Shown piece after piece: positions 1,186 through 3,935 of a stretch of DNA of 10,436 nucleotides; position 1 is the stretch's first letter; every line of letters starts with the position of its first letter. A program made the translations under genes and the position numbers. The notes beneath the pieces were generated by a model. The model was given only the letters and a program-made list of their open reading frames with translations. It was not told where the DNA came from and made no database searches. The stretch is from UHGV virus genome UHGV-0239688. One strand, written 5' to 3'. The stretch is from a virus.

Positions 1186-1395
1186 TTAAATTACATGATT
1201 ATTTATAATAAATTCTCGCGGAACGGTAAAATATCCAATTTTAGTTAATATAACAACATCGCCGTTAATAATTACCGGAGAATAATCGTCTGGAGCATTA
1301 AATTTCCAATGGGCTCTAATATTATATCCATCAGAACCAAATGCTCGACTAGCCGGTCTCCCGGCTTTTTGCCATGCATAAAAATCAAATTTCAT
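1186..1395 (-). CDS. Hypothetical protein, 69 aa (position of T4 soc.1-like ORF)
   Basis: ORF-track ORF; ATG (1395..1393) overlaps the upstream stop (ATGA); 3' end overlaps the soc late promoter. Confidence 0.55.
   Translation of the reverse strand: MKFDFYAWQKAGRPASRAFGSDGYNIRAHWKFNAPDDYSPVIINGDVVILTKIGYFTVPREFIINNHVI
1200..1207 (-). promoter_or_regulatory. T4 late promoter TATAAATA upstream of soc
   Basis: Exact TATAAATA on the minus strand (plus-strand tatttata at 1200..1207), about 30 nt upstream of the soc ATG; the only exact match I found in the window. Soc is a late capsid protein. Confidence 0.6.
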
Positions 1396-1595
1396 TTTGA
1401 ATGCTCTATAATTAATTTTAAGGCTTCTTCACGCACCAACTTGCCTAATGGTATATGCCCAGTTTTAATTGTGTAAGCTTTGTGGAGCTGATTAGATAAG
1501 AGCTCGTATGTGAGCTCTTTGTCATAATTTTTAAATAGCTGGTCAATACGTTTCTTGCGGGCTTTCTTAAGCTGGCGTTTATTTAAACGAACCAT
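1392..1595 (-). CDS. Hypothetical basic protein, 67 aa (position of T4 soc.2-like ORF)
   Basis: ATG (1595..1593) overlaps the stop of the dCTPase gene (TAATG); Lys/Arg-rich N-terminus MVRLNKRQLKKARKKRIDQLF. Confidence 0.55.
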   Translation of the reverse strand: MVRLNKRQLKKARKKRIDQLFKNYDKELTYELLSNQLHKAYTIKTGHIPLGKLVREEALKLIIEHSK

Positions 1596-2113
1596 TAATA
1601 GCCTCTGTCTTGACGAGCGAAGTTTTCAGCATTTTTCAGATAATAAAGTTTAAAGATTTCCTCAGCTGACATTCCAAGAGCAATGAATTTATTCATGAAA
1701 AAGTGAAATTGATCAATCAGTTCAAATTTAATTTCAAGCTGATCTTCAGGAGATAAGTCTTGAATTTTCTTGGATTGCATTTCAGAATAACGTTTCTTCC
1801 AAGGTTTCCATACAGCAGAAGCTTCTTTTTCACCATTACTCATACCACCAAGAGAAGTATATAGCTCGCGGGTTTCGTCTGCGATATAATCGTCTTGGTT
1901 TCGCAACCAAGCAAGAACTTCTCCTGCGGTTTCAAGTGAATCAGGATGACGATTTGTTTCTGGTTTATCATTAGCCAAACGAATCTGTAAAGACCGCTGC
2001 ATATCAAGCATAACCTGCAATGGGTCAATATTGTGCATAATATTCTCAGCATATGCACGAGTTGCTTTATCAACACCTTCGATCAAATGGGCGCATTCAT
2101 TAAAGTGAGCCAT
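1595..2113 (-). CDS. 56: Probable dCTP pyrophosphatase (T4 gp56-like, MazG/dimeric-dUTPase-like), 172 aa
   Basis: Start placed at ATG 2113..2111 (MAHFNECAHLIEGVDKA...) with an AAAGGA RBS; the longer track ORF (to 2206) would run through the promoter. Size and position next to the soc cluster match T4 gene 56; identity is from synteny and remembered sequence, not a search. Confidence 0.6.
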   Translation of the reverse strand: MAHFNECAHLIEGVDKATRAYAENIMHNIDPLQVMLDMQRSLQIRLANDKPETNRHPDSLETAGEVLAWLRNQDDYIADETRELYTSLGGMSNGEKEASAVWKPWKKRYSEMQSKKIQDLSPEDQLEIKFELIDQFHFFMNKFIALGMSAEEIFKLYYLKNAENFARQDRGY

Positions 2114-2147
2114 TATTTTTCCTTTCAATTCATGGATTAATAGATTA

Positions 2148-2172
2148 ATTATACAATAAATATATAAAGCAA
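2148..2172 (-). promoter_or_regulatory. MotA-dependent middle promoter upstream of gene 56
   Basis: Minus-strand reading tTGCTTTAtatatttattgTATAAT: MotA-box-like TTGCTTTA (2172..2165), 11-nt spacer, -10 TATAAT (2153..2148). Confidence 0.5.
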
Positions 2173-2184
2173 TAAGGAGGACAT

Positions 2185-2385
2185 ATGGTACAAAAATTAA
2201 TGGCACTTGTTAATGCCATCAAAGGTAATAAAAAGCGTATAGCTTTTACTATTTCTGCTATGGTAGGAATTTTACTCTGGAACTTTATTTTATCACCTGT
2301 TGCAATTGCGCATGGTATTAATATTCCAGTAGTTACTCTTGATACATTCGTAGATTTAGCATTCGCTTTAGTTGGGTTAATTTAA
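2185..2385 (+). CDS. Hypothetical small hydrophobic (probable membrane) protein, 66 aa, on the opposite strand
   Basis: ORF-track ORF with a strong SD AAGGAGG (2173..2180) 4 nt before the ATG; product is dominated by hydrophobic residues (two likely TM segments); convergent with gene 61, stops overlapping by a few nt. No minus-strand ORF of any length fills this gap. Confidence 0.35.
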   Translation: MVQKLMALVNAIKGNKKRIAFTISAMVGILLWNFILSPVAIAHGINIPVVTLDTFVDLAFALVGLI

Positions 2386-3410
2386 ATCTTAGCATATTTA
2401 GATAACCGCATTTTAGCCATCAACCCCTGGGCAATATTATTTTTCATATATTCCATAATTTGTTCAGTGGTTGCACCTTCCTTTCTAATCATATCATTAA
2501 CATCTTTTGATTTCCAGGGAGATTTATCCCAAAACATAACCCTTTCTCCTGCATCAACTAATTTAGTCATTCGCTTAATAGTGTCAGGATGACGAGGTTC
2601 ATTATCTAAAACCCACACGCGTCTATCTTTAAATGGAACAATTTCTAGGTCTAATTGACCACCCGTAATAGCTATACCATTTTCAATAAAAAGTGAATCT
2701 ATAGGTCCTTCTAGAACATATACATCACCATCTTTAACTCGTTCGACTCCATAGATTTTTGTTGCCTCAGGATAAGCTTTGATGGTGATATATTTTTGAG
2801 GAGCATCTTTCTTTAATGCACGTCCTTGAAAAGACTCAGCTTTTCCATTAGCATTATAAATTGGAATAACAAGACGAGGCTCAGAAATTTCCTTTTTGTA
2901 TGTTCCCGGTGCTATACTATTAACTAATTTAGGCCATTCAGTTGTAAACCAAAGATATTTCCATTTATCCTTTGGAATACAACGAGCTTTTACGTATTTT
3001 ATAATTGGATGGTCTTCCGCCAGTTTATCTAATCTAACACATGACGGAAGAGATTTAATTATTTTCTTCTCAGGTTGTTTAGGAAGTTCTTTAGGTTTTT
3101 CTACTGGACGACTTTTACCTTTTTCTTTTCTTATTTCAAAGATATACTCACGATATAAATCAGGTTCAAACTCCTTTAAATATATTCCGATTGGTGCATG
3201 ATAGTTACAGTTATAACAATGAATATTTCCTTCATTATTATCACCATAATACCATCCACGAGCTTTATTCTGGTCGGTTTTTGAATCTCCACAAACAGGG
3301 CATCTAAACCGTAATTTAAAAGTTGAACTATTATTTACTTGTGTGAATTTAGGTAAATGAGCTAATGCACGGTATGCAAACTCATTATCAATCCAAGGTA
3401 TTGATGACAT
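2382..3410 (-). CDS. 61: DNA primase (T4 gp61-type), 342 aa
   Basis: N-terminal zinc ribbon (CPVCGDS...CYNC), TOPRIM-like motifs (VYVLEGPIDSLF, WVLDNEPRHPD); length equals T4 gp61; synteny next to gene 41. Confidence 0.9.
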   Translation of the reverse strand: MSSIPWIDNEFAYRALAHLPKFTQVNNSSTFKLRFRCPVCGDSKTDQNKARGWYYGDNNEGNIHCYNCNYHAPIGIYLKEFEPDLYREYIFEIRKEKGKSRPVEKPKELPKQPEKKIIKSLPSCVRLDKLAEDHPIIKYVKARCIPKDKWKYLWFTTEWPKLVNSIAPGTYKKEISEPRLVIPIYNANGKAESFQGRALKKDAPQKYITIKAYPEATKIYGVERVKDGDVYVLEGPIDSLFIENGIAITGGQLDLEIVPFKDRRVWVLDNEPRHPDTIKRMTKLVDAGERVMFWDKSPWKSKDVNDMIRKEGATTEQIMEYMKNNIAQGLMAKMRLSKYAKI

Positions 3411-3578: not shown

Positions 3579-3935
3579 TTAACCTCTATTCATAAAAGCA
3601 TTAAAAATTTGGTCATCAATAGATAGTGCAGTAATATTTTCTGCATCATTTAGCAAATCATTAATTTCATCAGATAGCATAACACATGTACCTTTATTTC
3701 CTGTAATTGTTACTGCACAATTACGAACGTTTTCTTTATTAAATTTTAGGTTAATATTTTCGTAATGAAAATCCTTTAATGCTGAATATATTTTTAAAAT
3801 AAAATTGTCTTTTACTGCAATAAACCCAACCTCACTATTAAAACGTGGTTCATGAAAACTGTAATAAACCTTTTCATCTATAAAATCGTATGAAATTTTT
3901 TCCATTTTTAAATATGAAAATTCAGAACTATGCAT
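3579..3935 (-). CDS. Hypothetical protein, 118 aa (position of T4 61.2)
   Basis: ORF-track ORF; ATG 3935..3933 with GAGG RBS, 12 nt after the sp stop. Confidence 0.6.
   Translation of the reverse strand: MHSSEFSYLKMEKISYDFIDEKVYYSFHEPRFNSEVGFIAVKDNFILKIYSALKDFHYENINLKFNKENVRNCAVTITGNKGTCVMLSDEINDLLNDAENITALSIDDQIFNAFMNRG

Follow-up and report, generated by a model that had tools for sequence, protein, structure and literature searches.

Class II holins and pinholins, such as S68/S71 of phage 21, are small proteins with two hydrophobic helices that are expressed late. Another group of holins is PF11351, the GTA-holin family of TCDB. Its prototype, rcc00556, is required together with the lysozyme rcc00555 for lysis and for the release of RcGTA in R. 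capsulatus (PMC3423380, PMC5026251). In phage T4, the holin is T, which is made late, and t knock-outs never lyse (PMC6832632). RI, RIII, and T are small, late-acting proteins at or near the inner membrane (PMC6832632; PMC11413866, PMC8385771). The gene considered here, dam.1 of the T-even phages, also encodes a small hydrophobic protein. It is found between genes 56 and 61 in a stretch of 10,436 nucleotides (nt) from the virus genome UHGV-0239688, and the whole of this stretch is called the window.

The plus-strand open reading frame (ORF) at 2185..2385 of the window is dam.1 (RB32ORF030w, phrog_2024), a real protein-coding gene. Its product is very probably a genuine late membrane protein. 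The reading favored here, with a probability of roughly 0.55, is that dam.1 encodes a late inner-membrane protein derived from a holin and probably accessory to lysis. The bare existence of the ORF is not new, as it is already in hundreds of records. What is added is the proposed assignment to the late genes and the proposed link to PF11351 holins as a truncated variant.

Identity, coding evidence, and expression signals of dam.1

A tblastn search with the peptide matched 697 phage records, 687 of them at a coverage of at least 80%. The gene is annotated as dam.1 in T4T, where the protein has the same length and 98.5% identity, and as RB32ORF030w in RB14 and RB51. Elsewhere, it is listed as a hypothetical protein. 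The phrog_2024 profile (function unknown) matches with an E-value of 1.4e-31 and 109 bits, with residues 2-66 on profile positions 1-65 of 65, and Pfam gives no match for the window protein at E <= 10. A scan of viral contigs returned five close relatives only. In the reference T4 genome, NC_000866.4, an intact copy is present at 17738..17938 (+) with one substitution, A25T, relative to T4T and with ATAAATA at 17710-17716. Because this copy is left unannotated, omics studies built on the NC_000866.4 annotation cannot report dam.1. A literature search for dam.1 or RB32ORF030w found no paper on the gene, and nothing relevant came from a search on ribosome profiling in T4 or on small proteins missing from its annotation.

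The automated names given to the protein conflict with one another, and no weight was given to them. They are "Holin" (UniProt A0A482MZV5, phage OE5505), "putative head morphogenesis protein" (T6 AP018814 / NC_054907), and "DNA packaging ATPase" (Klebsiella phage SAKp28). In the T6 record just named, gene 56 is labelled "ferredoxin".

The gene and its own signals are as follows.

2185..2385, plus strand: dam.1 coding sequence, from the ORF list; 98.5% identity to T4T dam.1, phrog_2024 at E 1.4e-31, ratio of nonsynonymous to synonymous differences (pN/pS) 0.15
2174..2180, plus strand: Shine-Dalgarno (SD) AAGGAGG, read from the sequence; a GGAGG-type SD is kept in 10 of 10 lineages
2155..2162, plus strand: late-promoter-like motif AATAAATA, a 7/8 match to TATAAATA; predicted transcript start at ~2168

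The ORF starts with ATG, has 66 codons followed by TAA, and encodes MVQKLMALVNAIKGNKKRIAFTISAMVGILLWNFILSPVAIAHGINIPVVTLDTFVDLAFALVGLI. The SD lies 4 nt 5' of the ATG. An earlier inspection of the letters alone (the sequence-only reading) had described a plus-strand ORF of this length with a strong SD, and both are present. Several antisense ORFs of 40-100 amino acids (aa) are found in the window, and the length of an ORF is not significant by itself. What stands above chance for dam.1 is its conservation, its substitution pattern, and its flanking signals.

Among nine Tequatrovirus copies, 5, 2, and 12 variable sites fall on codon positions 1, 2, and 3, respectively, and the pairwise ratio of nonsynonymous to synonymous substitution rates (dN/dS) ranges from 0.06 to 0.31. 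Summed over pairs, pN/pS is 0.15 in the frame of the ORF, and the five remaining frames give 0.21-2.56. In comparisons between genera, pS is 0.57-0.73 (near saturation), and pN is 0.32-0.36. The Mosigvirus homologue has ~55% identity, and identity drops to 20-30% across genera. W32, N33, P38, and A40 do not vary among the 22 T4-type members, and G44 and P48 hardly vary. By these comparisons, dam.1 is conserved and under purifying selection. A lack of conservation as coding sequence was among the points that the sequence-only reading had named beforehand as able to refute it, and the substitutions bear the claim out.

The signals upstream of the gene point to late expression. A scan of both strands finds ATAAATA, which forms the core of the late promoter TATAAATA in T4, only twice in the 10.4-kb window. 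One copy lies within TATAAATA upstream of the late gene soc (1200-1207, minus strand), and the other is at 2156-2162 on the plus strand, 22 nt 5' of the dam.1 ATG. The core seems to be avoided elsewhere in this block of early and middle genes. Nine of 10 lineages have ATAAATA 12-22 nt before the ATG despite diverged surrounding bases, and the Kanagawavirus phages Q7622 and CIP9 have an exact TATAAATA upstream of dam.1. With a background of 3.2e-4 per base, placement by chance in nine lineages has a probability of ~1e-20 if the lineages are assumed to be independent, a figure that overstates the case because they are not fully independent. dam.1 appears to belong to the late genes, and its transcript is predicted to start near 2168. 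It would be read from its own late-type promoter, with a leader of 16-17 nt and a strong SD, and its transcript would run clockwise, against the surrounding early and middle genes. Late genes in T4 depend on gp55 and gp33 and mostly read clockwise, and being a late gene would explain this orientation. A T4 differential RNA sequencing preprint reports 150 phage start sites, 22 of them antisense (bioRxiv 10.1101/2024.04.04.588121).

Probable relationship to PF11351 holins

The dam.1 protein has a grand average of hydropathy of 1.25, with hydrophobic stretches at residues 19-42 and 49-66. All five basic residues (K4, K13, K16, K17, and R18) are within the first 18 positions, and D53 and D57 are the only acidic residues. 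An AlphaFold model from a 22-sequence alignment has helices at 2-12, 16-42, and 52-63, with a mean predicted local distance difference test score of 75.6. The hydrophobic two-helix peptide first described from the letters is roughly right; the model also has the short N-terminal helix. In the predicted topology, the N-terminus is inside, and one long transmembrane (TM) helix is joined by a short loop to a C-terminal helix that is also hydrophobic. According to the positive-inside rule, the basic N-terminal 18 residues would stay cytoplasmic, and residues 19-42 would span the inner membrane. The loop HGINIPVVT (conserved as G-x3-P-x-V-x-L-D/E) would face the periplasm, and the hydrophobic C-terminal helix (~49-66, with D53 and D57) would re-enter the membrane. 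A Foldseek search against viral structures returned family members only (one labelled "Holin" in UniProt), with all else at E > 3. The fold search is of little help because a helical hairpin of 66 residues is too simple.

When 24 diverse family members were scanned singly against profile libraries, the foreign matches that recurred were to PF11351 "GTA_holin_3TM" (4 members, best E 0.03, always to the C-terminal half), phrog_3427 "holin" (3 members, best E 5e-4), and phrog_11161 "holin" (2 members). The other foreign families matched by more than one of the 24 were two unnamed PHROGs only. NCBIfam and PADLOC scans of the family gave unrelated single noise matches only.

For comparison with PF11351, six phage proteins of 133-152 aa that score 58.9-89.7 bits on this family were used. 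Four of the six genes have a gene for an endolysin, a muramidase, or an M15 peptidase as their immediate neighbor. With hhalign, the whole family of 24 aligns to the six holins over 54 columns with a probability of 93.6%, an E-value of 2.2e-7, and a score of 42.6, and the window protein alone gives a probability of 60.7% and a score of 29.3. Column-shuffled versions of the holin membrane half (350 shuffles) have mean scores of 10.0-10.9 and maxima of 17.3-19.6 (mean 10.0 and maximum 17.3 with the whole family as query, maximum 19.6 with the T4-type members only), and the reversed holin profile scores 13.1. The shared motifs can also be made out by eye. WRP..GW of PF11351 falls on the basic cluster before the dam.1-family helix, W-x-F-L-L-x-P falls on W-N-F-I-x-x-P, and G..P.LP.LD falls on the conserved loop of the dam.1 family, with the last helix ending at a conserved Gly. 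A prophage member of 99 aa (P0130) aligns to PF11351 positions 30-116 and looks intermediate. dam.1 is probably homologous to the last two membrane helices of PF11351 holins, with the N-terminal half lost.

The two groups share the C-terminal membrane half, and PF11351 genes lie beside an endolysin as the prophage relatives of dam.1 lie near a lysozyme. In contrast, dam.1 is half the size of these holins (66 versus 133-152 aa) and is without their N-terminal half, the T4-type dam.1 is not beside a lysin gene, and the main holin T of T4-type phages is unrelated. An 81-aa "GTA-like holin" of Pseudanabaena phage Pan1 (locus L023, 2471-2716) likewise matches PF11351 in the C-terminal half only, and does so below the threshold (E 0.041). 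Because of this protein, short forms of the holin module would exist outside enterobacterial phages.

A profile search run exhaustively over 1.84 billion cluster representatives places only 20 clusters in the dam.1 family. The members that are not T4-type are proteins of 50-99 aa in enterobacterial chromosomes, and their loci are prophages. There, the right arm ends with the homologue, which follows the tail-tip genes, and a T4-type lysozyme gene (PF00959) is found on the other strand at a distance of 0.5-1.5 kb. Also nearby are a SegE-type GIY-YIG gene, which precedes the homologue, and a small gene whose product combines a TM segment with a coiled coil (DUF2730 per PGAP in E. coli), and in Leclercia-type copies the dam.1 homologue overlaps the GIY-YIG gene by 4 nt. 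This module is seen at locus L030 (20079-22514) and locus L021 (4595-6252), and L024, L026, and L028 have the same layout. After the module comes variable, defence-like cargo (DUF4238, DUF3800, and a dynamin-like GTPase). A 33-kb E. coli prophage inserted in yegD has no glycoside hydrolase other than this lysozyme, and its annotation lists neither a holin nor a spanin anywhere. By inspection, the prophage lysozymes are without a hydrophobic N-terminus, so they would need a holin.

The interval between genes 56 and 61

The 801 bases surrounding the ORF have 98.4% identity to phage T6, from whose annotation the flanking genes were named. The remaining features of the locus are listed below.

1595..2113, minus strand: gene 56 (dCTP pyrophosphatase), divergent neighbor placed by aligning the T6 annotation; 71 nt separate it from the dam.1 start
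2148..2153, minus strand: -10 element TATAAT of the gene 56 middle promoter, read from the sequence, 11 nt downstream of the MotA box
2165..2173, minus strand: MotA-box-like ATTGCTTTA of the gene 56 middle promoter, from the sequence and the fPS-90 annotation
2197..2222, minus strand: terminator-like hairpin of 11 pairs, then UUUUUG, within dam.1 codons 5-13
2382..3410, minus strand: gene 61 (DNA primase), convergent neighbor whose stop overlaps the dam.1 stop

The layout of this interval agrees with every checkable point that the sequence-only reading had described. The gap holds no minus-strand ORF of at least 40 aa between 2206 and 2382 in the ORF list of the window. As claimed, the 3' end of the ORF overlaps the gene 61 stop, with 2 nt shared between the gene 61 TAA (read 2384->2382 on the minus strand) and the TAA of the ORF (2383-2385 on the plus strand). 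A minus-strand middle promoter of gene 56 had also been placed beside the SD and start. On that strand, ATTGCTTTA (2173->2165) is followed after 11 nt by TATAAT (2153->2148), and the record of Yersinia phage fPS-90 has a "predicted middle promoter" at the corresponding position. A MotA box with a -10 element is the layout of MotA-dependent middle promoters in T4. Because the late motif falls inside the spacer of this middle promoter, the 71-nt gap would carry two divergent promoters that overlap and belong to different temporal classes.

The sequence-only reading had also placed genes of the dam region between 56 and 61 in T4, and T4 records bear this out for dam. dam.1 of T4 (phrog_2024) sits at the matching location and likewise converges on gene 61, whereas the window is without dam between dam.1 and gene 56. 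Since no dam gene intervenes in the window, the late-type promoter overlaps the opposite-strand middle promoter of gene 56.

dam.1 has the same position and orientation in six genera (Tequatrovirus, Mosigvirus, Gaprivervirus, Kanagawavirus, Jiaodavirus, and Gelderlandvirus). In the window and in ten related lineages, it is on the strand opposite to 56 and 61 and abuts the 3' end of gene 61, with the exception of Metamorpho, where a small extra gene is found between dam.1 and gene 61. The stretch from 56 to dam.1 carries no gene in the window or in 294 of the 514 matching records. T4 has dam in this stretch, fPS-90 has an HNH/NUMOD3 endonuclease, and Kanagawavirus and Jiaodavirus have small ORFs that are unrelated. 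In this comparison, the variable element is the spacer and not dam.1 itself. The variable locus that the sequence-only reading had proposed stands for the stretch between 56 and the ORF; the ORF is fixed beside the 3' end of gene 61 in all lineages compared. A mobile cassette that joins dam.1 to a homing endonuclease was considered and rejected, as the HNH/NUMOD3 endonuclease of fPS-90 is unrelated to the SegE-type GIY-YIG gene of the prophages.

Gaprivervirus carries two tandem paralogues of the dam.1 family. In VR7 (locus L012), the copies are at 1295-1492 and from 1501 onward; the second copy is unannotated, and its frame continues into the gene 61 region, a possible frameshift. In related phages, the second copy is intact at 66 aa (e.g., P0061). 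In the T6 reference MH550421 (locus L001), positions 2786-2788 read ATT instead of the dam.1 ATG of the window, T4, and others. Because ATT replaces this first ATG, the T6 record annotates a 61-aa product from Met6.

The hairpin at 2222..2197 on the minus strand has a U-run that extends to ~2187. Its energy is -12.4 kcal/mol (z -3.9), and 0 of 200 shuffles are equally stable. The fPS-90 record annotates it as a terminator, and it would serve as an intrinsic terminator ~160 nt downstream of gene 61. The hairpin is strong in Tequatrovirus and absent from the matching place in Mosigvirus, Kanagawavirus, and Jiaodavirus. Because it is confined to Tequatrovirus, codons 5-13 of dam.1 would bear a second, lineage-specific signal for the opposite strand.

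The window has a 118-aa ORF (3579-3935, minus strand) where T4 and T6 carry gene 61.2 (208 aa). The match of this ORF to T4 gp61.2 is confined to the C-terminal half of the T4 protein, with 34% identity. The gene 61.2 allele of the window is shorter and far more diverged than the neighboring genes.

Possible function and alternative readings

In the reading favored here, dam.1 would accumulate in the inner membrane late in infection. There, it may be accessory in membrane or lysis control and modulate the T holin or membrane energisation. A role in lysis, taken by itself, is put forward tentatively and is less likely than not. The narrower proposal that dam.1 is an unrecognised part of T-even lysis control, a late holin-derived mini protein that would tune T firing or energisation during lysis inhibition, is rather doubtful. 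Such a part would have been missed, as it has no reference T4 annotation and its only long tryptic peptide is extremely hydrophobic.

Described late membrane proteins resemble dam.1 in part. The S68/S71-type holins of phage 21 have a similar size and two hydrophobic helices, and late expression of dam.1 is predicted. In contrast, the C-terminal helix of dam.1 is short and has no charged C-terminal tail; the two are likened by description. In a manner reminiscent of some dual-start holin/antiholin pairs, dam.1 of Tequatrovirus has two in-frame Met codons, M1 and M6, with Lys4 between them, but the second Met is not conserved outside this genus. RI, RIII, and T of the same phage are likewise small, act late, and reside at the inner membrane or close to it, but no search found sequence similarity between them and dam.1. 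RI is a periplasmic and RIII a cytoplasmic protein, and T carries a single TM helix and a large periplasmic domain, whereas dam.1 would be almost wholly within the membrane.

Several points weigh against a holin-derived accessory of lysis. The best family member scores 15.3 bits on PF11351, below its gathering threshold of 24.8 bits, and the 66-aa protein aligns to nothing ahead of the WRP motif, so dam.1 is not filed as a member of PF11351. An adjacent endolysin gene, as in PF11351 holins, is not found in the window, where the neighbors are 56 and 61; a nearby lysozyme is found for the prophage relatives only, and this link is guilt by association, not proof. When only the T4-type members are aligned to the holins, the hhalign probability drops to 62.9% (score 29.7). 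PF11351 was itself chosen from weak hmmscan matches, and the pairwise hhalign E-value needs correcting for this reason. In the late motif of the window, A replaces the first T of TATAAATA. Since T4 t knock-outs never lyse, dam.1 is not the main or a sufficient holin, and in T4-type genomes it lies away from e, t, rI, and the spanin genes. The ATT first codon in the T6 reference suggests that full-length dam.1 may be dispensable in laboratory culture.

An alternative is a real late membrane protein with a job outside lysis, such as superinfection exclusion, membrane anchoring of an assembly or replication complex, or anti-defence, with the PF11351 likeness reflecting a reused hairpin. This is somewhat unlikely. 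It is consistent with the position of dam.1 in a replication gene block away from the lysis genes, and with a T4 lysis set to which spanins also belong. The small size of the family, with sub-types and tandem copies as in accessory host-interaction genes, and the placement of prophage copies at the prophage end beside variable cargo point the same way. Lysis in T4 is, moreover, genetically covered by t, e, rI, and rIII (PMC6832632). However, the only named remote similarities that recur are to holins, PADLOC gives no signal, and the prophage copies are consistently near a lysozyme gene.

Two further readings would make the protein secondary or deny it. The locus could serve chiefly to make a late plus-strand transcript, antisense into gene 61, that contributes to switching off primase late in infection. 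The conserved late-promoter-like motif is indeed directed into the 3' end of gene 61, and the scan found no convincing plus-strand terminator just after dam.1 (fold of 2370-2460, z -0.16). Nevertheless, the peptide is under purifying selection with residues invariant across genera, a strong SD is present in every lineage, and the prophage relatives keep the protein with no primase gene nearby. An antisense role could coexist with the protein, yet it leaves the conservation of the protein unexplained, and as the chief function it is very unlikely. That dam.1 is no gene at all, and that the ORF is open by chance in an interval conserved for the minus-strand terminator and the gene 56 promoter, is extremely unlikely. 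The strong hairpin in codons 5-13, the frequency of 40-100 aa antisense ORFs in this AT-rich window, and the lack of annotation in reference T4 would fit such a reading. The hairpin cannot explain the conservation of the ORF because it is absent in Mosigvirus, Kanagawavirus, and Jiaodavirus, and conservation as a by-product of the terminator was rejected; the ORF persists outside Tequatrovirus at 25-55% protein identity. Third-position substitutions dominate, pN/pS is lowest in the frame of the ORF, the SD and promoter motif are conserved, and homologues are found in unrelated prophages. The absence of a gene is contradicted by these comparative data.

Under the favored reading of a late, holin-derived inner-membrane protein, a "hypothetical protein" gains a testable identity as a late membrane hairpin with probable kinship to the pore-forming end of an established family of holins. 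If a mutant has no phenotype, dam.1 would be one more small accessory membrane protein. Lysis and lysis inhibition in T4 are much studied, and a conserved, holin-related late protein outside t, e, rI, and rIII would be of interest there.

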